From an uncultured Candidatus Sumerlaeota bacterium (lineage in GTDB: Bacteria > CAYMEV01), in the NCBI GenBank assembly GCA_964389675.1, contig CAYMEV010000011.1, forward strand, positions 1-64,000: DNA of 64,000 bases, in the 5' to 3' direction. Of this stretch, positions 2 to 13,532 are shown in pieces; the stretch's first letter is position 1; every line of letters starts with the position of its first letter. The notes under the pieces were generated by a model that saw nothing but the letters and a program-made list of their open reading frames with translations, was not told the origin of the DNA and searched no databases. Made by a program: the position numbers and the translations under genes.

Positions 2-742
2 ATGTTAATTAAAAGCAATGATAATTCAAATGATCAAAAAGAAGATGGTTTTTTTAACCTCATTGATCACTGCATTGATATAAAAACCCGCAAGAGCCCA
101 GTTAAAGCCAAAAGCTATAATCAGAAGCTGTATATTGATAAGATTATGGAAAATGACATAGTCTTTTCTATCGGTCCTGCAGGGACAGGAAAAACATACC
201 TGGCTGTTGCAATGGCTCTCAAGTACCTTTATTCTGAAAGCATAAAAAGGATAATACTTACAAGGCCCGCAATTGAGGCAGGGGAGAAGCTGGGCTATCT
301 TCCCGGCGACCTGTATGAAAAGATCAACCCTTACTTAAGGCCCCTTTATGATGCATTATACGATATGATGCCGCCTGACAAGCTCCAGAACTATATACAG
401 CGAAACCTTATCGAGATTGCTCCCCTTGCATACATGAGAGGAAGAACGCTCAACTCCAGCTTTATAATACTCGATGAGGCACAGAATACTACCCCTGAAC
501 AGATGAAAATGGTCCTGACCAGAATGGGTTTTAATTCAAAAATAATAATCACAGGGGATATTACTCAGATAGATCTGCCTCAGAATCAGGCATCAGGCCT
601 GATCGAAGTAATAAGTATCCTCAAGGATATCAAAGGGATTGGATTCATGTACTTTGATAAAAGGGATGTGGTAAGGCACAGATTGGTAAAGGATATTGTC
701 GCTGCCTATGAAAAATATAAAAAACCGCCTGAGAAACACTAA
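2..742 (+). CDS. phoH: PhoH family ATPase (probably 5'-truncated by window edge)
   Basis: GPAGTGKT Walker [41 protein letters not shown]; leads the usual phoH-HD-ybeY block. Confidence 0.95.
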
Positions 743-3108
743 TGGAAGAAGATAATACAATCCTGTATAATTTTAAGGAAAGCCTGGAATCATTCAAATT
801 CGATAAATATAAAAGTGGCACAAAGAATCTTATACATATACGAAATGCTGACAAGATTCCTTCAAAGAAACTCCTGAGATTTTTTATTTTCCTTATCCCT
901 TTTGCACTGATCCTGTCGTATTTTATTATCCCTAAGGACAGTTTCAGCCCCTATAAGCTTAATCTTGGCGAGATATCAGACCAGAACATCAAAGCACCCT
1001 TTGATATAGAGATTGAAGATATTAAGACAACAGACAGGAAAAAGCAGGAAAAGCTTGAATCAATACCCCCTGTGTTTGATTATGACCCATCGGTCTCTGA
1101 ACTTAAGAAAAAATTCATTGTATCTCTCTTTAAGTTCTTATCCAACTATTTCCAGGCTCTTATAGAAGAGAACAAGAATCAGAAGGAAATACCGCAGATC
1201 AGCTTTGAGGAATTGAATACTATTATAATAAGGGAATATGGCATTGATTTCACAGTAAAGGAATTAAAAGAGCTTTTCGGAATCATGAAGAACGGGCATA
1301 ATGATCAGCTTCTATCCTTCCTCAACAGCGATATTATCGATTATATATATGAAAAAAAGCTTATAAGGGATGTGTCAGAATTAAACAAATATGCCAATTC
1401 CGGCATCCTTATAAAAAACATTGAAACAGGTAAAGAGGAAGAAATTAATATCTTTACAGATATACTTGACTTAAGTAATATACAGGAACATATTAAGACC
1501 AAAATTGATATCTTTATCCTAAATTTTAATTATCCTGTAAAGCCTCTGCTTTATAAAATACTTAATAATATTATTGAACCAAACATTACTTTTAACCGGG
1601 CTGAATCTGAAAAAATCAAAAATGAACTGATTGAGGGTATTCCCAAGGTATTCTTCTCAAAGAAAAAGGGGGAAAAGATAATAGGAGAAGGGGAGAGGGC
1701 AACCGAAAGCCAGGTAATGCTCCTTGACGAGATAAACAGAAGGATATCCGTAGATAAAGCTACATATTCACAGTACTTTTATTTCTTCATCTATTCTTCC
1801 ATAATTGTTTTGATATTCTTTTTCCTGCTTCTTTTATTTCACCCCTGGCATGCTTTATCAAATTACTATAATTATTTCATGATACTTGCGCTGTTCCTTC
1901 TGAATATATTCATCATGAACATTCTATGGCATTTTTACATGCTTTTATCATCAGCATTTGACAAGGAACCATTTGTTACAGTTGACCTATACCTCTATGC
2001 CTTGCCCTATGCATTCGGGGTGCTGATGCTTTCTGTACTGCTGAATTCAAAGACTGCACTTACTTTTGGTATTTTCCAGATCTGTTTTTATGTGCTCCTT
2101 TTCAATCTGAACAGTTTTCAGATCATCTACATATTCATAGGTATTGCTTCAGCATCCATTATGCGCGAAATCATAAAGAAAAAGAATTTTTATATAAAGA
2201 GCGTCCTTATTCTAATACTTCTCCAGTCATCCTCGGCTGTTCTGAATTCTCTGATCTCCGGCAACCATGGCCTGCCTGCCGTAGGTTTTATCCTGCTTTT
2301 GGTAATTATATCAGGTTTCAGTGTTTATGTGCTTATAAACACTCTTATACCTCTTTTTGAATGGATTTTCAGGCTTTCTACTGATATGAAACTGCTTGAG
2401 CTTCTTGACTTCAAGCATCCATTATTAGAGAAACTCATGTTTACGGCAAGCGGGACACTCCATCATTCCATTGCAGTTGCAAACCTTGCGGAAGTTGCTG
2501 CAAGGAGCATTGGATGCAATGCTATTCTATGCAGGGTTGCATCTTATTATCACGATATCGGGAAAATAAACAAGCCTGAGTATTTTATTGAAAATATCAC
2601 AAGCAGGGAAAATAAGCATGACAGGCTTAAACCTTCCATGAGTGCCCTGATATTAATATCACATGTAAAATCAGGATATGACCTTGGCAAAAAATTCAGA
2701 CTGCCGGCACCTATACTGGAGATAATCCAGCAGCACCACGGTACTGCGCTTATTAAATTTTTCTATGATAAAGCAGTAAAAAATCAGCCTGATGATAATA
2801 AGGGATCTGTATCGGAGGATAATTTCAGATATCCGGGTCCAAAGCCATATACCAAGGAATCAGCAATAATACTGATTGCAGACAGGGTAGAGGCTACCAG
2901 CAGGATTCTTATAAACCCCTCAACAGCAAAAATAAAATCAATGGTTGAAAACATTGTTAAATCAGCATTACTGGATGGCGATCTTGATAATGCAAACCTT
3001 TCTTTATTTGAGCTTTCAAAAATAATTGAATCATTCTGCAATGTCCTTTATGGTTCATTTCACAAGCGAATTGATTATCCGGACCAGCCTGAAAGCTACA
3101 AGATCTGA
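742..3108 (+). CDS. 7TM-HD membrane phosphohydrolase (PgpH-like, putative c-di-AMP phosphodiesterase)
   Basis: N-terminal TM, large extracytoplasmic region, about 7 TM helices, then HD domain: HHS...YYHDIGK...QHHGT...YPGPKP...ADRVEA. Confidence 0.88.
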   Translation: MEEDNTILYNFKESLESFKFDKYKSGTKNLIHIRNADKIPSKKLLRFFIFLIPFALILSYFIIPKDSFSPYKLNLGEISDQNIKAPFDIEIEDIKTTDRKKQEKLESIPPVFDYDPSVSELKKKFIVSLFKFLSNYFQALIEENKNQKEIPQISFEELNTIIIREYGIDFTVKELKELFGIMKNGHNDQLLSFLNSDIIDYIYEKKLIRDVSELNKYANSGILIKNIETGKEEEINIFTDILDLSNIQEHIKTKIDIFILNFNYPVKPLLYKILNNIIEPNITFNRAESEKIKNELIEGIPKVFFSKKKGEKIIGEGERATESQVMLLDEINRRISVDKATYSQYFYFFIYSSIIVLIFFFLLLLFHPWHALSNYYNYFMILALFLLNIFIMNILWHFYMLLSSAFDKEPFVTVDLYLYALPYAFGVLMLSVLLNSKTALTFGIFQICFYVLLFNLNSFQIIYIFIGIASASIMREIIKKKNFYIKSVLILILLQSSSAVLNSLISGNHGLPAVGFILLLVIISGFSVYVLINTLIPLFEWIFRLSTDMKLLELLDFKHPLLEKLMFTASGTLHHSIAVANLAEVAARSIGCNAILCRVASYYHDIGKINKPEYFIENITSRENKHDRLKPSMSALILISHVKSGYDLGKKFRLPAPILEIIQQHHGTALIKFFYDKAVKNQPDDNKGSVSEDNFRYPGPKPYTKESAIILIADRVEATSRILINPSTAKIKSMVENIVKSALLDGDLDNANLSLFELSKIIESFCNVLYGSFHKRIDYPDQPESYKI

Positions 3109-3662
3109 TGAAAAACATAATAGAAATAATCAACAACTCAGGCATTAATCTGTCCGATTACTGCATTTCAACATTGAGGAGGATCATCACTGATTTTTTT
3201 TCACCCCTTGGATATGCTTATTATTTATCCGTAGTCCTTACTGATGACTTTCAGATAAGGAATATAAACAGAAAATTCCTTTCAAAAGATCAGGAAACCG
3301 ATGTAATAGCATTCAGCTTTCTAAATAATTATCCCGAAAAGATATTTTCTGTCTCAAAACTAAAAAGTAAAGATATATACAGGCTGAAAGATGACTTAAA
3401 CCGAGAAGCAATACAGCCTGTGCTTCAGATCGGAGAATCATATATCTCCGTTGAACAGGCAATTGCCTACAGCGAAATTAATAAAACATCCGTTAATAAA
3501 GAGCTCAACTGGCTTCTTTTGCACAGCCTTCTTCATTTGATAGGCTATAGGGATAATACCGACAGGCAGAGGAATATTATGTTTAAGAAGGCAGAATATT
3601 TCTTATCATCATTCTATAATAAGAATAAGCAATATAATAAAAAAAAGAGAGGAAAAGGTTAG
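3108..3662 (+). CDS. ybeY: rRNA maturation endoribonuclease YbeY
   Basis: INRKFLSKDQETDVIAF and HSLLHLIGYRD motifs; conserved position between HD and CBS genes. Confidence 0.85.
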   Translation: MKNIIEIINNSGINLSDYCISTLRRIITDFFSPLGYAYYLSVVLTDDFQIRNINRKFLSKDQETDVIAFSFLNNYPEKIFSVSKLKSKDIYRLKDDLNREAIQPVLQIGESYISVEQAIAYSEINKTSVNKELNWLLLHSLLHLIGYRDNTDRQRNIMFKKAEYFLSSFYNKNKQYNKKKRGKG

Positions 3663-3664
3663 AC

Positions 3665-4900
3665 ATGGACCCTGTACCGCTGGAAATTTATCAGGCAGGC
3701 TTATGGATTATTTATGCGATCGCTTCTGTTTCTTTCATAAGCCTTATTTCACTTGGCAGACTCACCATTAAAAGGTTTTTAAAGGATTCAAAATATGAAA
3801 CCGCTTTGCTGGAATTCTGGATTGAGAACATTGACCATGCATCTCTATCCTACTTTATACTTAAACTGATCTCACTGATTGCAGTCCTCCTGATAGGGAA
3901 CAGTTATCAATCCAGTTCGATTCTGATTATTTTTATACCGGTTGCTGTATTTGAGATCTTCATTTATGTTATATTCTACCACAGCAATATAAGGTCCCAT
4001 ATATCACTGTATTCTGTAATACTGCTCAGAAGCGTTCTACTGCCTTATTTTCTTCTGGTCAAATATCTTTATCTTTTTTTTGATAAGCTGTCCAGCAGGC
4101 TAAGAAGTGATAAAGGCGAAGATACGGAAGAATCTGAATCAGAAAATGAAATAGAGGATATCATAATTGAAGACAGCAATCTTCTGGATAAAGATGAAAG
4201 AAAAATGATAATGTCAATTATCCAGTTTAATGATACTACAGCAAAGGAAGTAATGACCCCCAGAACCGACCTTGCATGTATTGAAGTCAGTTCATCCGCT
4301 GCAGAGATCATAGAACTCATAAACCGGGAAGGTCACTCAAGAATACCTGTATATGAGGAGAAGATAGATAATATCGTCGGAATCTTTTATGCAAAGGATC
4401 TTCTAAAGGAGATAAAGAATAAAAGCCTGGATTCAATAAATATAGGGGATTTCTTAAGATCCGCATACTTCGTTCCTGAAACAAAAAACATCAGTACTTT
4501 ATTAAAGGAATTCATGCGTGATGAAGTACATATAGCAATTGTTGTTGATGAATATGGCGGCACAGCAGGAGTGGTCTCGATTGAAGACCTCATTGAAGAA
4601 ATAGTAGGTGAAATCAGGGATGAATACGATTACGACGAAGACCAGGTTTTCAAAAAGCTTGAGGATAACAGCGTGCTTTTTGATGCAAAAGCAGATATAG
4701 AGATTTTGGAAGACCTCTTTGACATCGAAGTCCCTGAGGATGACTTTGAATCTATTGGTGGCCTGGTTTTTTCTATCATCGGAAGGGTACCTAAGCCTGG
4801 AGAAATATTAAAATTTGAAAACCTCATTCTTGAAATTGTTGAAGCTGATGACAGGAAGATATCAAAGATTAAAGTAAAAAAAGACCTCCAGGTAGAGTAG
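3665..4900 (+). CDS. Hemolysin/CorC family CBS-domain membrane protein
   Basis: Hydrophobic N-terminus, EVMTPRT, GHSRIPVY, VVDEYGGTAG, EDLIEEIVGEI, C-terminal CorC/HlyC domain. Confidence 0.9.
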   Translation: MDPVPLEIYQAGLWIIYAIASVSFISLISLGRLTIKRFLKDSKYETALLEFWIENIDHASLSYFILKLISLIAVLLIGNSYQSSSILIIFIPVAVFEIFIYVIFYHSNIRSHISLYSVILLRSVLLPYFLLVKYLYLFFDKLSSRLRSDKGEDTEESESENEIEDIIIEDSNLLDKDERKMIMSIIQFNDTTAKEVMTPRTDLACIEVSSSAAEIIELINREGHSRIPVYEEKIDNIVGIFYAKDLLKEIKNKSLDSINIGDFLRSAYFVPETKNISTLLKEFMRDEVHIAIVVDEYGGTAGVVSIEDLIEEIVGEIRDEYDYDEDQVFKKLEDNSVLFDAKADIEILEDLFDIEVPEDDFESIGGLVFSIIGRVPKPGEILKFENLILEIVEADDRKISKIKVKKDLQVE

Positions 4901-7666: not shown

Positions 7667-7696
7667 GAGCTGCAGGCAAAAGCCTGCAGCTCTTTT
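7667..7696. terminator. Intrinsic terminator between convergent genes
   Basis: 11-bp stem GAGCTGCAGGC-AAAA-GCCTGCAGCTC followed by TTTT. Confidence 0.8.
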
Positions 7697-9569
7697 ACCA
7701 GAATCTCCCCCTGTAGACCTTGGGAAACTCAACCGGATTGTAAATCCTTTTTGACTGCTTCAGGCCAAAAAAACCAAAATCTATGCCATCATTTACATAC
7801 AGGCTGTCCTGTGATTCAATAAATTTATGCTTGAGAAAATAAGACAGCCCTCCAAAACTGTTATCACACTTCATAATAAATGCATTGGAATACCTGCTGT
7901 TCATCTTGCCGCCCATAATAAAGCCTATAATGCGCGAATCATACTCTGCAATCATTATATCGACATCCAGCCTGAGAAGGTCGTCAATCTTCCCCATGGC
8001 ATTTTCGGTATAATAGCTGTCATACAGGCTGGGATACTTTATGCTCTGGTCAGCCAGCCATCTTGTATAGGCTTTATCAAGCAGTATTGAGTCACCCATA
8101 TTGAATCCCCTGCATATTACAGGGCTCAGGTTCCTTCTAAACCTGTATATCTTTTTTCTTAATGCGCGAAAATGCCTGCCTTCCATTTCCAGCACATTTT
8201 TCCTTGAGTATATATATTCCCTTCCTGCAATTTCAATCTCTTTATTCTCATACTCCTCAAGCTTCAGGAGGTCACCCTCAGTCAAAAAGGATACAGCTGC
8301 CTGCCTTTCGTCGTTCAGGCTGGCTGTAAACCTGAAGAGGTCCACAAGGTCCCCGGATTCAGAAAGAGGATTTAAGAAAAGGAGGCTGATCTTTTCCTTT
8401 CCATCCTTGATCCTCCAGCTGAAGATCTGCCTTAAACCGTTAATTTCCTTTATCAGGATCCTGCGTGCCCTGCTCAGCCCGCTGAAGTAAATGAAAGGCA
8501 CATAATGAAACCAGCTGGGTTTTTCTATTTTGTCATAGACAAAGCTTCTATATAAAAGGGCATTTTCCAGATTGAAGACATTGAATACGGCTTTTCTGCT
8601 GATGAAGAGGTCTGTGTCGACAGGAAGGCTTTCCCGTATATCTGCGAAAATAGGGTCCTTGTTTTTTGAAAAAATATAGTACCTCCTATATCTGTCGCTT
8701 GACAGCTCTCCCTTAAGAAGCAGATCTTTCACCCTGCAGTTTTTTTCCTCGATGTGCATGCAGTCCCTGAACTCACAGGGGGTTTTCTCCTGCAGGTCAA
8801 AGAACTCCGGATAGCCGGACCTGATAATATCATAATCAATGCTGTTATGAGACATCTTTCCGAAACCTGGTGTATCATAAATATAGCTTTCCTTAAAAAG
8901 CCTGTACATGATCGAGGTACTTGTTGTATGAGACCCCCTCCTGGACCTGGTCAGTTTTCCGATCTTCAGATCAATTTCAGGATTGAGAGCCTTAAGAAGA
9001 GATGATTTCCCGCTCCCTGACGGACCGATAAGCACGGTTTTCTTTCCCAGTAATATATTCCTGACCTCTTTTATATTTTCATTCTTCCTGACTGAAGTCA
9101 GGATTATTTCAAAGCCAGCGTTTCCGTATGATTCGATAATATCCCTGAACTGCTCCAGGTCTGCTGCATCAGTCTTGTTGAATATTATGCAGGGATGAAT
9201 GCCGTTATAGTTTGCATGGCTTAAGACAAGGTCAAGGTAAAAGGGGTTGATATTGGGCTCAACAAAACTGAATACAGCCAAAAGCTGGTCACAATTGGCT
9301 GCAATTACCTGATTTCTGACCTCTCTGTCCCTTTTTTCAAGAAATCTTGTCAGCTCGCTCTTCCGCTTCAGTATTCCGGTGACCATATACCTGCCCCTGT
9401 TAACCTCAAGGGTACATATATCACCTGAAACTATGCTGTGTTTTGAATTTGCCTCTAAAAGCTTTCCCTTTACTGTAGCTTTTATGAGCTCATCTTTATA
9501 AAAAACACCAAGTTCCCTGCCATAGCAAGCAGATACTAATCCGGTTTCAGCTCTGCTTTTTTTCTGCAT
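7695..9569 (-). CDS. rsgA: RsgA ribosome small subunit-dependent GTPase fused to a C-terminal DUF2156 (LPG synthase C-like) domain
   Basis: aa 1-300: NKTD, GPSGSGKSS, GSHTT, DTPG, Zn motif CEFRDCMHIEEKNC. aa ~330-624: EYIY..EGRHFRALRKKIYRF and YVNDGIDFGFFGLKQSKRIYNP, matching the DUF2156 pattern. Confidence 0.85.
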   Translation of the reverse strand: MQKKSRAETGLVSACYGRELGVFYKDELIKATVKGKLLEANSKHSIVSGDICTLEVNRGRYMVTGILKRKSELTRFLEKRDREVRNQVIAANCDQLLAVFSFVEPNINPFYLDLVLSHANYNGIHPCIIFNKTDAADLEQFRDIIESYGNAGFEIILTSVRKNENIKEVRNILLGKKTVLIGPSGSGKSSLLKALNPEIDLKIGKLTRSRRGSHTTSTSIMYRLFKESYIYDTPGFGKMSHNSIDYDIIRSGYPEFFDLQEKTPCEFRDCMHIEEKNCRVKDLLLKGELSSDRYRRYYIFSKNKDPIFADIRESLPVDTDLFISRKAVFNVFNLENALLYRSFVYDKIEKPSWFHYVPFIYFSGLSRARRILIKEINGLRQIFSWRIKDGKEKISLLFLNPLSESGDLVDLFRFTASLNDERQAAVSFLTEGDLLKLEEYENKEIEIAGREYIYSRKNVLEMEGRHFRALRKKIYRFRRNLSPVICRGFNMGDSILLDKAYTRWLADQSIKYPSLYDSYYTENAMGKIDDLLRLDVDIMIAEYDSRIIGFIMGGKMNSRYSNAFIMKCDNSFGGLSYFLKHKFIESQDSLYVNDGIDFGFFGLKQSKRIYNPVEFPKVYRGRFW

Positions 9570-10719
9570 TAATCAGTTTTGGGTCAACTCTTTCAAATTT
9601 CAGCGTCCTGCACACATCGCAGCCGCTCTGCTTCAGTATTTCAATGCTCAGTTTGCCCGTTCCCGTTGCAAATATCTTATTGCATCCAGTACAGCGGTAG
9701 TATCTGATCTTTGGATTTACTTCAAAGGTATATATATCTTCATTAAATATATCGCTTTCTGCAATTATTGATCTGCTTGTCTGACAGGTAGATATCAGGT
9801 AGAGATCGCTCTGGTTTGAATACAGGGAATTCCCCTGGTATTTATTGAACCCGGGAAGAACAGACTCAATAAGCAGATTCATCTTCAGAATATCTTTCTG
9901 TATGCTCAAAAGGTCCTCGCGCATGATCCTGGGCAGATTCAAATATATCTTCCTGCCGGTACCCCACTTAAGCATTTCTACAGCCCTGGATAAAAAGAGC
10001 CTCACTCCATTTGCAGTATAGGGCGGGTCTGTGAAAACTATATCATTGATATCAAGATAAGCAGGCTCCATTTTTTCCTTAAGGTCCATATTTGTTACAT
10101 TTACAGGGTATTTATGCTTCCCTGCAATATTTGAAATATAGCATGTAAGCCTTTGATCACATTCATAAACCCTTATCCTGCATGGTATCGTTCCATTCCG
10201 GAATATATGCTGCAGGTACAGGCATATTGTGATCGAAGTGATATCATCATCACCCAGTATTGCAATATCTCTGCCAATCAGGGAATCATCAAAAAGCATA
10301 TGCTGCACTCTGTTTATCTGAGTTTCAATAGTGGAATGAGACTGATCAAGTGACCTGTCAGGCACGGGCCTTTCTTTTGAAAATTCTGAAAGCTCCCTTT
10401 TGATCTTTTCAATAACCCCTGTTTCTAATCTCAGGCATTCTGCTTTTGCATGAAACAGGTTTTCAGATAAATGGACCCCTTTTTCTGTCAGCACCAGGCC
10501 TGATGCTCTGTTTAAAATACCTGAATTTTCAAATTCTTTCCTGATTGCAGCAACAACAGGAAGAGGCAGTCTTGAAAAACGGGCGATCTCCTTTGTGGAA
10601 CCAGGTCCCAGAAAGAACAGGCAAAACAGCACTCTCCTGATACCCTCTTCCTTCTCAGCAAGCCCAATACTATCTGATATATCTTTAACTTTATAAAAGG
10701 GGTTTTCTAGATAGGACAT
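9547..10719 (-). CDS. Bis-aminopropyl spermidine synthase (BpsA/DUF43) family protein with C-terminal zinc ribbon
   Basis: RPVPDRSLDQ, ILGDDDITSI, VFTDPPYT..GVRLFLSRA, FNKY; C-terminal CTGC...CDVC. Confidence 0.82.
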   Translation of the reverse strand: MSYLENPFYKVKDISDSIGLAEKEEGIRRVLFCLFFLGPGSTKEIARFSRLPLPVVAAIRKEFENSGILNRASGLVLTEKGVHLSENLFHAKAECLRLETGVIEKIKRELSEFSKERPVPDRSLDQSHSTIETQINRVQHMLFDDSLIGRDIAILGDDDITSITICLYLQHIFRNGTIPCRIRVYECDQRLTCYISNIAGKHKYPVNVTNMDLKEKMEPAYLDINDIVFTDPPYTANGVRLFLSRAVEMLKWGTGRKIYLNLPRIMREDLLSIQKDILKMNLLIESVLPGFNKYQGNSLYSNQSDLYLISTCQTSRSIIAESDIFNEDIYTFEVNPKIRYYRCTGCNKIFATGTGKLSIEILKQSGCDVCRTLKFERVDPKLINAEKKQS

Positions 10720-10725
10720 TCAGTG

Positions 10726-11733
10726 CTATTGAAGTATCTCAACCTTGTATTTTTCTTGAAGCTCGGTAAAAAGCTCATTGACGAATTTGGATATCCTGCC
10801 CCTTTTAAGTGCATTTAAGATCTCTTCCCTTTTCTGGCCGAAATCATAAACACCCTCTCCCCTTTTATCTGTAACATAAATAATGTGATATCCAAACTTT
10901 GTTTTTACAGGTTCTGAGACTTTGCCTTTCTCCAGGCTGAAAGCAGAATCTTCAAATGGCTTCACCATCCTGCCTCTTTCAAAAAAACCCAGATCTCCGC
11001 CCTTTGATTTACTAGGGCAGTCCGAATACTCTTTAGCAATATTTTCAAAATCCTTGGAAGGATCCTTGATTTTGCCCTTTATCTCATTAATCCTTTTTAA
11101 TGCTTCTTCTTCGCCATACTTGTCAAAAGATACCAGGATATGCGAAGCCTTTACAGATTCTTTATGCTTAAATCTTTCTTTGTTGGAGTCATAGAAATCC
11201 TTGAGCTCCTGTTCTGTGGGATCGGTATAACCCCTTTCCTTGATGATCTTGTTAATTGCAAGCTCTCTGCTTATTTCCTTCTTAAAACTGTCCATGGTCA
11301 AACCCTGTTTGTTAATCAATTTTTCGAATGCTTCCATGGACTCAAAATTTTCTGTAATCTCTTTAATCCTTGTATTCAATTCCTCAGGAGACACAGCAAT
11401 ATTATTTTCAGCGATGTATAATTCAAGAACAGCATCATTGACAATTTTCCTGAGTATCTCTTTACTGTTGGCAGAAAGAACCTCCTGGGGTATATCCTCA
11501 ATCTTATGCCCGGTTAATGAAACAAGATCCTCTATCTTTTCATTAAGCTGTTTTTGTGTAATGACATCCGCGCCAATCCTCGCAACAATTTTTTCTTCAT
11601 CTTTAATAGCCTCAGTGGCCTTTTCTTCATCCTTGATTTCTTCACCAGTTTTTTCATCATTGGTTTCAGCTAAAGTAAAGGTAAACGAAAAAAATAAAAA
11701 TATTATCATACAAAAAATCAAAACTCTTTGCAT
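10726..11733 (-). CDS. Exported parvulin-type PPIase (SurA/PrsA-like)
   Basis: Signal peptide, SurA N-like region, ASHILV, YSDCPSKSKGGDLGFF, MVKPFE, FGYHII. Confidence 0.92.
   Translation of the reverse strand: MQRVLIFCMIIFLFFSFTFTLAETNDEKTGEEIKDEEKATEAIKDEEKIVARIGADVITQKQLNEKIEDLVSLTGHKIEDIPQEVLSANSKEILRKIVNDAVLELYIAENNIAVSPEELNTRIKEITENFESMEAFEKLINKQGLTMDSFKKEISRELAINKIIKERGYTDPTEQELKDFYDSNKERFKHKESVKASHILVSFDKYGEEEALKRINEIKGKIKDPSKDFENIAKEYSDCPSKSKGGDLGFFERGRMVKPFEDSAFSLEKGKVSEPVKTKFGYHIIYVTDKRGEGVYDFGQKREEILNALKRGRISKFVNELFTELQEKYKVEILQ
11591..11660 (-). repeat. Imperfect 30-nt tandem repeat (about 2.3 copies) encoding an acidic linker
   Basis: TTTTC(T/A)TCAT at 11591, 11621, 11651; encodes NDEKTGEEIK-DEEKATEAIK-DEEK. 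Confidence 0.6.
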
Positions 11734-12413
11734 AAACTTCCTCCATTATTTATTTGTAAAATTCCCGATTCAGCAAAACATTCATATATATAATTGATTG
11801 CTTCAAAATCTGAGCTTTCATCTTCCAGTTTAATATATTTGCTATAGAAAATATCGATGCTGTTTTCAGGTATATCGCAAATCACAGATATTATAAGCAG
11901 GATCTTTGCCACCATGAAATCCAGGATCAGCCTTTTTCCGGGCTGATTATTATCAAGCTTTATCATCTTCTTCTTTATTAGGCGGTTAAAAGACATTGCC
12001 CGGCTTATCCTCGATCCGGAAAGCTTATTGAAAAGTATCGAATATTCCCTGTTGACTATATGTGAAATAAGGCCGTCACTTATAAGCAGATGGTCGCTTC
12101 TGCGGAAGCTGTCATCTGTATAACCGGACTCACAGCTCTTTTCAATATTTTTTATTGATATATGATAAAGCTCGCATAGGGTTATTAATTCATCAATAAC
12201 ATCCCCCTCTAAAAGACCTGCGGGATTATTCTTCAATATCAGGAGAAGAAGAACTGATGCAGGGCTGTATTCACAGCATCCGGGCAAATGGCTCAGGCTT
12301 CCAATACCATAGTGCTCATCTAATGAAAGAAGCCTTCTGCTTTCCATCATTCTCGATATGGAATCTTTTCCCAGATCAACTTCTTCCTTGCTAAACACGG
12401 CTGAATTCGCCAT
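11718..12413 (-). CDS. Hypothetical helical protein, possibly a degenerate prenyltransferase fold
   Basis: Fills operon between bactofilin and PPIase; ATG 12413 has GGAG upstream; CELYH...RR...LLISDGL pattern. Confidence 0.55.
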   Translation of the reverse strand: MANSAVFSKEEVDLGKDSISRMMESRRLLSLDEHYGIGSLSHLPGCCEYSPASVLLLLILKNNPAGLLEGDVIDELITLCELYHISIKNIEKSCESGYTDDSFRRSDHLLISDGLISHIVNREYSILFNKLSGSRISRAMSFNRLIKKKMIKLDNNQPGKRLILDFMVAKILLIISVICDIPENSIDIFYSKYIKLEDESSDFEAINYIYECFAESGILQINNGGSLCKEF

Positions 12414-12822
12414 CAAATACTGCTCCCTCTTCAATTATGAATGTTTTTCCTTTAATACTTGAATTCACTGCACAGTTCGGGAAGAGCTTTACCATATTTT
12501 TGGCTATTATTTCCCCTCTGCATTTTCCATAGATAATGATATCCTGCGCTTCTACCCTGCCGTCAATCTGACTTCCTTCAAGGCTGACAACAGTGTTGTT
12601 GCAGATAATATTGCCTTTGAACCTGCCTGCAATAAATATTGCCTGGCTGGAGTTAATGTCCCCCTTGATATTGCATTGTCTTGATATAATGCTGAATGCA
12701 GACTCAGAATCCATTTCAGTTCTGGATAACAGCTTATTCTTGTTGATAAGGTCATCAGGCATTGTATGAAGATTTGCAGATTTAGAAAGCTTGTCAACCA
12801 TATCATTTATTTTCGAATTCAT
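12391..12822 (-). CDS. Bactofilin (polymer-forming cytoskeletal protein)
   Basis: SIIS..CNIKGDI...IAGRFKGNI...IDGRVEA..IIIYG...IIEEGAVFDG beta-helix pattern; ATG 12822 follows GAGG. Confidence 0.88.
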   Translation of the reverse strand: MNSKINDMVDKLSKSANLHTMPDDLINKNKLLSRTEMDSESAFSIISRQCNIKGDINSSQAIFIAGRFKGNIICNNTVVSLEGSQIDGRVEAQDIIIYGKCRGEIIAKNMVKLFPNCAVNSSIKGKTFIIEEGAVFDGEFSRV

Positions 12823-13007
12823 AGAACACCTCTCTGTGTTATTGGAAAACCTGCCAGCAGACACATTTTCATTTAATGATCCCAATAAAGGGATATCATT
12901 AAAAAACTATTACTAATTAATATGAAAAGCAAGATATTTTATAAACCTTAAACTGAAAGAAGCTTTTGACTTTTTATCTTATACATATATTATCTGTATA
13001 TAATTTC

Positions 13008-13532
13008 ATGATTAATGATATAAAAAAGATAAAAGCCTGTATATTTTTTGCATTAATGGCCAGGACAAACGATGAAATGGACAGATTCTCCTCATTGTAT
13101 TCAAAGGAGATAAATGCAAATATTATTTATTCCAGCAATACAGTTATTTTTACGGACTTCAGCTGTTATTACAATAAAGAGATGGGTAATAAGATCTTTA
13201 AGAAACTGTTTTTGACCGACAAAATAGTAGACTGTCATAAAATCTCATCTCTGAAGGACATCTCAAATAATCTCGAAACAAGATTTTCCACTGATAATAA
13301 AAGAATTTTCAATATTGACCCCGGCTATATGAACTCTCATCAGATAGTACTTCTTACCACCAAGTTCTCACCGCACAGGATACCCATAGACGCCCAGCTG
13401 TGGGCAGAGATAACTCTTCTCAGGCACAACAGGATGTGGTACCCGCTTCTTTGGACATATAAGGATTACAGGTCAGAGGAATTCATATCATTCTTTGATG
13501 AAGCCAGGATAATTATAAAAAAGTCGGGTTAA
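13008..13532 (+). CDS. DUF4416 family protein
   Basis: YYNKEMG, RIFNIDPGY, TTKFSPHRI, WTYKDY. Confidence 0.85.
   Translation: MINDIKKIKACIFFALMARTNDEMDRFSSLYSKEINANIIYSSNTVIFTDFSCYYNKEMGNKIFKKLFLTDKIVDCHKISSLKDISNNLETRFSTDNKRIFNIDPGYMNSHQIVLLTTKFSPHRIPIDAQLWAEITLLRHNRMWYPLLWTYKDYRSEEFISFFDEARIIIKKSG

Follow-up and report, generated by a model that had tools for sequence, protein, structure and literature searches.

RsgA is a GTPase that checks the decoding center of late pre-30S subunits and a near-universal assembly factor in Bacteria. To our knowledge, it has been found so far solely as a stand-alone GTPase. For the DUF2156 family, all characterized members known to us use aminoacyl-tRNA as the donor of an aminoacyl group that they pass to an acceptor. 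Excerpts of two reports on these enzymes (PMC7334510 and PMC6103681) describe a positively charged helix, α(+), which lies between the two GNAT domains and binds the tRNA acceptor arm. Here, we analyzed a gene of an uncultured Candidatus Sumerlaeota bacterium in which both families are joined in one reading frame. It is located in the first 64,000 nucleotides of contig CAYMEV010000011.1 (assembly GCA_964389675.1), the whole stretch of which is referred to as the window. The gene encodes a protein of 624 amino acids (aa), P0001, with an ATG start (7695..9569 including the stop codon, on the minus strand, as are all P0001 features given below). P0001 unites two known families in an architecture that is conserved but undescribed, and they have a third partner that was not expected, namely, a BpsA-like aminopropyltransferase gene whose end overlaps the start of the fusion. 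The first-pass annotation of this DNA knew of no comparable fusion, and our full-text literature search likewise returned no published description of one; the supplements of PMC7334510 and PMC8913301 may hold surveys of domain architectures.

The N-terminal half of P0001 was compared with RsgA models and structures. The Pfam family RsgA_GTPase (PF03193) matched residues 66-239 (E value of 3.3e-42, 144.7 bits versus a cutoff of 30), and the NCBIfam RsgA equivalog TIGR00157 matched residues 47-298 with 174.5 bits (cutoff, 100). Two narrower RsgA models stayed under their cutoffs (NF008931, 141 versus 360; NF008932, 128 versus 483), and no Pfam match to RsgA_N (PF16745) was obtained in P0001. An OB-fold N-terminal β-barrel (residues 8-66, 9372..9548) was nevertheless delineated by model strands at residues 8-16, 19-24, 27-33, 51-57, and 60-66, by the matches to RsgA structures, and by NF008931, which aligned over residues 7-299. 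It is followed by the GTPase domain (residues 66-239, 8853..9374), which the genome search with PF03193 found at the same place. The motifs G4 (NKTD, residues 131-134, 9168-9179), G1 (GPSGSGKS, residues 182-189, 9003-9026), and G3 (DTPG, residues 232-235, 8865-8876) occur in the order G4-G1-G3, i.e., the domain is circularly permuted. Next come the zinc site C265-x4-C270-x-H272-x5-C278 (8736..8777) and two closing helices (residues 279-285 and 291-301, 8667..8735) that were taken from the structural model; the TIGR00157 match ends at residue 298. In Foldseek searches, the N-terminal half matched RsgA structures (7boi_W with an E value of 7e-21; 6h4d and 1u0l, both with a target-normalized template modeling score [TMt] of 0.85; and 5no2_Z), with TMt values ranging from 0.75 to 0.85. 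By sequence and model, residues 1-301 are a complete RsgA with OB fold, permuted GTPase, and zinc site, and we consider it very probable that this half works as RsgA does elsewhere.

Excerpts of PMC5499641 and PMC4436671 describe how the C-terminal helix α6 of Escherichia coli RsgA enters the P-tRNA site of the 30S subunit near C1400, buttresses switch 2, and is required for 30S-stimulated GTP hydrolysis and the release of RbfA. Helix 291-301 is the modeled counterpart of α6. It is followed by a linker (residues 302-317, 8619..8666) that is partly helical (helix 311-319) and was predicted with a local confidence (pLDDT) of about 78 to 79 in the full-length AlphaFold2 model. This model, for which an alignment of 74 rows served as the input, reached an overall pLDDT of 92.3 and a predicted TM score (pTM) of 0.88.

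The C-terminal half consists of a DUF2156/LPG_synthase_C dual-GNAT domain (residues 318-624, 7698..8618), for which Pfam, the closest solved structure, the model, Foldseek, and the hmmsearch envelope (318-624) agree. LPG_synthase_C (PF09924, formerly DUF2156) matched residues 393-617 with an E value of 3e-12 and 46.7 bits against a gathering threshold of 27.5; the match covers positions 42-294 of the 298 in the profile, and the genome search gave 46 bits. Besides PF09924, no Pfam family, including FemAB, matched this half at an E value of ≤0.01. An AlphaFold2 model of residues 301-624 reached a pLDDT of 94.1 and a pTM of 0.90 and divides into GNAT I (about 318-461) and GNAT II (about 482-624). 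Its best Foldseek match in the PDB was the soluble DUF2156 protein 2hqy (E value of 8e-18, TM scores of 0.75/0.81), which was also matched by the C-terminal half of the full-length model. Synthase domains of the MprF type (5vrv, 6lv0, 4v36, 4v35, and 7duw; TM scores of about 0.62) came next and were followed by the aminoacyl-tRNA-dependent, peptide-bond-forming enzymes Sbb17/Sba18 and FemX. Sequence searches of the PDB also led to 2hqy (E value of 2e-6 with the single sequence and 2e-35 with a profile); the profile reached 2hqy and RsgA chains and no MprF chain at an E value of ≤0.001. In the ESM Atlas, PF09924 clusters scored 0.96 to 0.97 against the C-domain, while the whole protein retrieved only RsgA clusters (best score, 0.85) and no fused cluster with at least 50 members.

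The first-pass annotation had read the gene as one uninterrupted 624-aa open reading frame with a complete RsgA and a DUF2156 dual-GNAT domain. Pfam, NCBIfam, and the fold comparisons bear this out and show the second domain to be complete as well, and every motif that it quoted was located in P0001. The profile scan and the structure prediction, which had been named beforehand as the checks on which the annotation would stand or fall, both place the C-terminal half in PF09924 and in the DUF2156 fold. Its statement that a flippase or membrane domain is lacking also holds, as the maximum Kyte-Doolittle mean over 19 residues is 1.02 and no membrane segment was found in P0001. The same is true for the nine fused proteins that were checked, none of which contains a membrane segment (19-residue means below 1.6 in 9/9).

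Ordinary GNAT enzymes such as RimI, RimJ, and RimL acetylate ribosomal proteins. The C-domain might be imagined to use acyl-coenzyme A (acyl-CoA) instead of aminoacyl-tRNA in a similar manner; the fold belongs to the GNAT superfamily, and the tandem-GNAT acetyltransferases 2wpw, MshD (1ozp), and VipF do appear lower in the fold list. However, these acyl-CoA tandem GNATs reached TM scores of only 0.33 to 0.48, compared to 0.53 to 0.75 for the top matches DUF2156, Sbb17, and FemX, and PF09924 is the sole GNAT-type Pfam family at the threshold given above. In addition, P0001 carries the basic helix between the GNAT domains that is typical of aminoacyl-tRNA transferases. We consider the use of acyl-CoA very unlikely.

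This helix (residues 464-481, GRHFRALRKKIYRFRRNL, 8127..8180; model helix 465-481) contains eight Arg or Lys residues and is basic in all 15 fused proteins described below. It overlaps the motif EYIY...GRHFRALRKK at residues 451-473 and is, by model and analogy, the predicted counterpart of the tRNA-binding α(+) helix. The C-terminal motif N593-D-G-x-D597...G602-L-x-x-x-K607...P612 (7731..7799), found within YVNDGIDFGFFGLKQSKRIYNP at residues 591-612, was delineated in an alignment of 54 sequences comprising the C-terminal 324 residues of P0001 and its relatives. K607 is invariant in this alignment (54/54). In a comparison with 105 unfused DUF2156 domains, 20 positions with a conservation of at least 70% in these domains were retained in at least 13 of the 15 fused proteins, among them R471 in the basic helix, W504, N593, G602, and K607, and just four positions of the C-domain are specific to the fusions. 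Residues conserved throughout the family presumably make up the active site. Judged from these sequence features, the C-domain probably performs aminoacyl-tRNA-dependent catalysis.

Retention of the basic helix in 15/15 fused proteins would also suit a sensor. In this case, the C-domain would bind charged tRNA at its acceptor end, whether or not turnover follows, and would tune the GTPase of RsgA, or the release of RsgA from the 30S subunit, to the aminoacyl-tRNA supply, acting as a nutrient gate on the production of ribosomes. The excerpts on E. coli RsgA mentioned above ascribe support of switch 2 and GTPase stimulation to the C-terminal helix, so that a domain attached there could pass on a signal, and the title of PDB entry 6zhl names ppGpp (guanosine tetraphosphate) binding by Staphylococcus aureus RsgA. 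However, conservation in the fused proteins is not confined to the helix; the invariant K607 and the N593/D597 motif are among the other family-wide positions retained. This argues against a pure binding module, which would not need them. A sensor would also leave the BpsA-like partner unexplained, and we regard this possibility as rather improbable.

The architecture occurs beyond this genome, a point that the first-pass annotation had missed. In total, 15 distinct fused protein clusters in two clades were found: clade A (P0001 to P0006), which is AT rich like the window, and the GC-rich clade B (P0016, P0160 to P0166, and P0011). A word-indexed protein search returned four fusions (P0002 to P0005; 622 to 634 aa) that are 52 to 63% identical to P0001 and collinear with it. 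A HMMER search with the C-domain yielded 272 relatives at an E value of ≤0.001 in a library clustered at 50% identity. The best 150 were listed, and 29 multidomain proteins among these were scanned with Pfam, which revealed three more fusions (P0006, P0011, and P0016); relatives of roughly 300 aa are too short to be fusions, and the remaining long ones lie outside the Pfam scan. Seven further full-length fusions (P0160 to P0166; 616 to 643 aa, all metagenomic) were obtained with the C-domain of P0016 as the seed and are labeled in IMG only as "ribosome biogenesis GTPase". P0001 and P0016 are collinear from end to end over both halves (28% identity, E value of 2e-70). All four zinc ligands are present in 15/15 fused proteins, and G1, G3, and G4 are intact in 14/15, the exception being P0011. 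Within clade A, the linker is 40 to 50% identical compared to 58 to 70% across the N-terminal half. One clade A fusion is encoded both in a second genome of the same genus (G001, locus L022) and on a JGI metagenome contig (L046), and the gene order at both loci is that of the window. At the level of genome contigs, a search with the single P0001 protein recovered no relative among 202 pattern matches, and a search with the alignment recovered one fused locus (L022) among 24 relatives. A 621-aa frame at the RsgA gene of genome G016 was rejected as a fusion candidate; the frame is a high-GC artifact, and the gene itself encodes 304 aa and is unfused.

These relatives bear on the concern that two genes were joined by misassembly or by a sequencing error at the junction. 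Over the exact sequence, a Logan contig from run X1 covers the whole stretch with no differences; X1 is possibly the source of this DNA. The independent run X2 contains identical pieces at 7813-8094, 8130-8620, 8747-8955, and 8949-9309 and nothing over 8621-8746. Therefore, the junction of the exact sequence is spanned by X1 only. However, the 15 fused proteins come from independent assemblies (NCBI, ENA, JGI, and Logan), and all are collinear without a stop or frameshift at the junction. In P0001 itself, the largest open reading frame in another frame across 7695..9569 comprises 129 aa. The two-gene assembly error that the first-pass annotation had allowed for is not borne out by this search of relatives; an artifact is extremely improbable, and the fusion is real with near certainty. 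The runs containing this DNA are marine-sediment metagenomes, and no RNA runs were found among those listed for the stretch.

To what extent the two halves share a history was assessed with trees of each. In a maximum-likelihood tree of 120 DUF2156 domains, clades A and B were each monophyletic (SH-aLRT of 100). A constraint uniting all 15 C-domains gained 12.05 log-likelihood units over the free quick search and was not rejected (p-AU of 0.643). In a tree of 37 RsgA halves (15 fused and 22 unfused), all fused sequences fell on one side of a branch with a support of 85, a value below the tool's mark of 95 and obtained with a small and biased outgroup of 22 sequences. Both trees are compatible with one ancient fusion event, which is therefore the simplest reading, though not a proven one. 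No split form was found among the best 150 of the 272 C-domain relatives, the nearest unfused of which are at most 33% identical. The genome of the window (G000, 93.8% complete) and G001 (91% complete) are the two genomes of this phylum in our set; they belong to one genus, and both encode the fusion. In each, the fusion is the sole PF03193 match above the cutoff and the sole PF09924 match. Thus, any RsgA function required there must come from it.

The persistence of the fusion across about 28% identity, with compatible trees for both halves, a short linker, no split form among the relatives listed, and its position as the sole RsgA of G000 and G001, speaks against the notion that the halves are functionally unrelated. 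In that scenario, a soluble lipid- or metabolite-modifying DUF2156 enzyme would have become fused to rsgA when the stop codon separating the two neighboring genes was lost. The fusion would be kept for coexpression only, and the ribosome would not take part in the transferase reaction. Soluble DUF2156 domains do fuse promiscuously, and excerpts of PMC8913301 describe free-standing fungal DUF2156 enzymes that modify membrane sterols without a membrane domain. P0011 also fits such a scenario. This clade B-like protein of 518 aa from an ENA metagenome has a degenerate P-loop (GPSGVGRLS), no DTPG, and no OB part, while its zinc ligands and its DUF2156 domain are intact and the C-domain looks normal. 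Either the transferase may not need a working GTPase, or the gene is truncated or decaying; P0011 could be a pseudo-GTPase variant or such a decaying gene. On balance, we hold unrelated halves to be unlikely. Other RsgA proteins may be extended as well: two "RsgA family" clusters in the ESM Atlas (513 to 523 aa, with 134 and 58 members, most frequent in Bacillota) exceed normal RsgA by about 200 residues, so RsgA may carry other extensions elsewhere.

With the fusion established, the question of the acceptor was approached through the relatives and neighbors of the C-domain. Its nearest relatives are soluble and fused to RimK-like ATP-grasp, Mur ligase, PGA_cap, kinase, methyltransferase, formyltransferase, and BpsA_C modules. 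The suggestion of the first-pass annotation that the acceptor may not be a lipid is favored by this context of soluble relatives with nonlipid fusion modules. Among these proteins, P0007, P0008, P0009, and P0018 are giant soluble proteins (950 to 1,285 aa) with two to three tandem DUF2156 domains, and in the three that were scanned with Pfam (P0007, P0008, and P0009) a RimK-like ATP-grasp follows the tandem. DUF2156 was found with a Mur ligase in P0019, P0029, P0031, and P0048, with a Mur ligase and PGA_cap in P0044, and with PGA_cap in P0050. Other combinations were with a Ser/Thr kinase (P0032), a CPT-like kinase (P0062), a methyltransferase (P0061), a formyltransferase (P0103), and a CxxCxxCC domain (P0126 and P0129).

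Upstream of the fusion, a gene of 390 aa (9547..10719, minus strand) overlaps the start of the fusion by 23 nucleotides; the overlap is 1 nucleotide in L022 and L046. Its product matched BpsA_C (PF01861) with an E value of 2e-35 and 122.6 bits (cutoff, 27) as well as the PDB entries 5xnc (E value of 1.9e-21, residues 38-295) and 2qm3 (E value of 1e-22). Its N-terminal part is winged-helix-like, a CxxC...CxxC ribbon is added at its C terminus, and the motifs GDDD and DPPY, which we presume to have a role in a BpsA-like enzyme, are visible in the sequence. By its sequence, the upstream gene is a BpsA-like aminopropyltransferase gene with a putative function in branched-polyamine synthesis dependent on decarboxylated S-adenosylmethionine (dcSAM); BpsA itself, of which 5xnc is a solved structure, is N4-bis(aminopropyl)spermidine synthase. 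G000 and G001 contain one PF01861 gene each, and in G001 this gene is the neighbor of the fusion. An S-adenosylmethionine (SAM) decarboxylase is encoded in G000 away from the fusion locus. Two spermidine-synthase-domain matches were also observed in this genome (G000:C14:38473-38925 and G000:C20:37199-37615), located in unusually long frames of 841 and 864 aa.

The same two modules were found in single chains among the C-domain relatives, namely, in the BpsA_C-DUF2156 fusions P0051 (702 aa) and P0053 (713 aa). The upstream protein of the window is collinear over residues 4-377 with residues 1-378 of P0051, including the ribbon (30% identity, E value of 6e-58), and P0051 runs on into a DUF2156 domain after its BpsA-like part. 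P0051 is encoded in genome G142, and a 47%-identical fusion is encoded in G402, which belongs to the same family but another genus. Both of the BpsA-DUF2156 loci examined (G142 and G402) are flanked by genes for a PNP_UDP_1 phosphorylase and a SAM decarboxylase, followed by infC. From its family name, the phosphorylase would be methylthioadenosine (MTA) phosphorylase-like. Together with the SAM decarboxylase, it would provide for supply and salvage in dcSAM-dependent aminopropyl transfer, and the DUF2156 domain therefore appears to be wired into polyamine synthesis at these loci. Within a small phylum represented by 13 genomes, single chains of this type (702 to 762 aa; L048, 1501-3609, and L063, 1351-3639) were seen in this operon context in two genera. 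Our literature searches found no description of BpsA-DUF2156 fusions. In excerpts of a review (PMC12979288), long and branched polyamines are described as needed for ribosome and tRNA maintenance in Thermus; the word "fusion" is absent from its text. The first-pass annotation had noted neither the overlapping BpsA-like gene nor the fusions of BpsA with DUF2156. In view of both, an acceptor of the polyamine type is no less likely than one in the ribosome.

We tentatively favor a reading in which the whole chain couples an aminoacyl-tRNA-dependent transfer to a late 30S checkpoint, with a soluble amine as the acceptor and a polyamine as its likeliest identity. The RsgA half would work as a usual RsgA. 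The C-terminal half would be active, take the aminoacyl group from aminoacyl-tRNA, and pass it to a soluble amine rather than to a membrane lipid. The likeliest acceptor would be a polyamine made or extended by the overlapping BpsA-like enzyme, which would yield an aminoacyl-polyamine. The reaction would occur at the late pre-30S particle or in its immediate vicinity, or it would be gated by the RsgA GTPase cycle. It is placed there because the C-domain starts about 16 residues past the helix that, in E. coli, occupies the P site of the 30S subunit. The supply of the modified polyamine would thereby be coupled to small-subunit maturation. A bolder version, which we consider unlikely, sees the BpsA-like enzyme, RsgA, and DUF2156 as one machine that installs an amino-acid-bearing polyamine on the nascent 30S subunit, or delivers it there, at the decoding center or P site. 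Such a polyamine could be attached covalently, to 16S rRNA or to a ribosomal protein, or be held tightly as a tailored ligand; the amino acid would be donated by charged tRNA, and the RsgA GTPase cycle would act as the quality gate.

Several observations weigh against transfer to a polyamine at the 30S checkpoint. In the literature searched, as far as the excerpts go, the characterized DUF2156 enzymes act on lipids or sterols only, and amine acceptors are known just for the remoter fold relatives Sbb17 and FemX. The BpsA-like neighbor is known in one genus only (G000, G001, and L046), and the L046 protein is nearly identical to that of G001; the neighborhoods seen are those of these three loci, with P0003 to P0006, P0011, P0016, and P0160 to P0166 outside this set. 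In the tree of 120 domains, the C-domains of the BpsA fusions do not form a sister group to those of the RsgA fusions. A BpsA-like gene of the same subtype in genome G165 has no DUF2156 gene next to it. The degenerate GTPase of P0011 points in the same direction. A general polyamine link for the stand-alone relatives was considered and rejected, since four of five genomes lack a SAM decarboxylase and the remaining one encodes it on a different contig.

Enzymes such as KsgA and Tsr3 modify the small subunit late in assembly, and by analogy the tethered DUF2156 domain might aminoacylate an amine of a ribosomal protein or a nucleotide of 16S rRNA near the decoding center or P site. The covalent link to a 30S checkpoint factor, kept over two clades at 28% identity, would fit such a function, as would a domain that begins 16 residues past the P-site helix (E. 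coli RsgA), a conserved DUF2156 family core, and the fusion of some relatives to RimK-like ATP-grasp. However, we know of no DUF2156 enzyme with a protein or RNA substrate, and the RimK Pfam match is that of a generic ATP-grasp. A ribosomal acceptor would also leave unexplained why the BpsA-like gene is conserved in its overlapping position and why BpsA-DUF2156 fusions exist. We give it a minor chance, about the same as that of unrelated halves.

The surroundings of the fusion gene were inspected in the window. Positions 2-4900 on the plus strand hold one codirectional block with a PhoH-like gene and genes for a 7TM-HD membrane hydrolase, YbeY, and a CorC/CBS protein. YbeY is a 16S rRNA maturation endoribonuclease, so that a second ribosome maturation gene lies about 3 kb from the fusion. 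At 11718-12885 on the minus strand, a bactofilin gene (164 aa, PF04519) overlaps the start of a 238-aa open reading frame without a Pfam family, and a DUF4416 gene is located divergently at 12966-13532.

A conserved fusion that is the sole RsgA of its genome implies that, in some lineages, the maturation of the small subunit and a reaction with charged tRNA as its substrate are physically connected. DUF2156 enzymes have so far been known only as lipid or sterol aminoacylases, and the set of known partners of soluble DUF2156 domains is widened here to ATP-grasp, Mur ligase, PGA_cap, kinase, and aminopropyltransferase. The independent BpsA-DUF2156 fusions and the overlapping BpsA-like gene bring in polyamine synthesis as a third partner. 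These results suggest that ribosome assembly, charged tRNA, and polyamines are linked in a way that has not been described. The predicted new product would be aminoacylated polyamines or an aminoacylated ribosomal component. If the three proteins did act as one machine, they would represent a new class of tRNA-dependent ribosome modification together with a new metabolite family, the aminoacyl-polyamines.

Compared with known systems, P0001 shares the full build of RsgA/YjeQ/EngC from E. coli, Salmonella, and Pseudomonas (5no2, 7boi, 2rcn, 6h4d, and 1u0l) over residues 1-301. However, the known proteins end after the C-terminal helix (about 280 to 350 aa), whereas P0001 adds 323 residues that form an enzyme domain. 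For this domain, the stand-alone DUF2156 protein 2hqy from Bacteroides thetaiotaomicron is the nearest solved structure by both sequence and fold. It is likewise soluble and of the same size, but it is free-standing (305 aa), is about 15% identical to the C-domain of P0001, and has no known function, so that it gives no mechanistic guidance. The synthase domain of MprF, an aminoacyl-phosphatidylglycerol synthase, shares PF09924, the dual-GNAT fold, the basic inter-GNAT helix, and the C-terminal motif with P0001. MprF carries an N-terminal multipass flippase domain, whereas P0001 has RsgA in that place and no membrane part; it is therefore a PF09924 member but not of the MprF type. FemX and Sbb17/Sba18 (1ne9, 4ii9, and 9wqx) are tandem-GNAT aminoacyl-tRNA transferases that match the fold with TM scores of 0.52 to 0.58. 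As they acylate amines (a peptidoglycan precursor and streptothrisamine), they set a chemical precedent for an amine acceptor, but they belong to other sequence families than the C-terminal half of P0001 and have no link to ribosome assembly. In fungal ErdS, as described in excerpts of PMC7334510, a DUF2156 domain is joined C-terminally to a protein of the translation apparatus, as in P0001. There, the partner is aspartyl-tRNA synthetase (AspRS), the acceptor is ergosterol, and the fusion raises activity, an effect ascribed to channeling of the aminoacyl-tRNA. The ErdS partner makes aminoacyl-tRNA, whereas that of P0001 is an assembly GTPase, which neither makes aminoacyl-tRNA nor binds lipid. 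Nearest in logic to the RsgA-DUF2156 fusions are the BpsA-DUF2156 fusions (P0051 of G142, P0053, and the protein of G402), which unite the two adjacent modules of the window in one chain but lack an RsgA module, lie in an operon with SAM decarboxylase and MTA phosphorylase-like genes, and occupy another branch of the DUF2156 tree.

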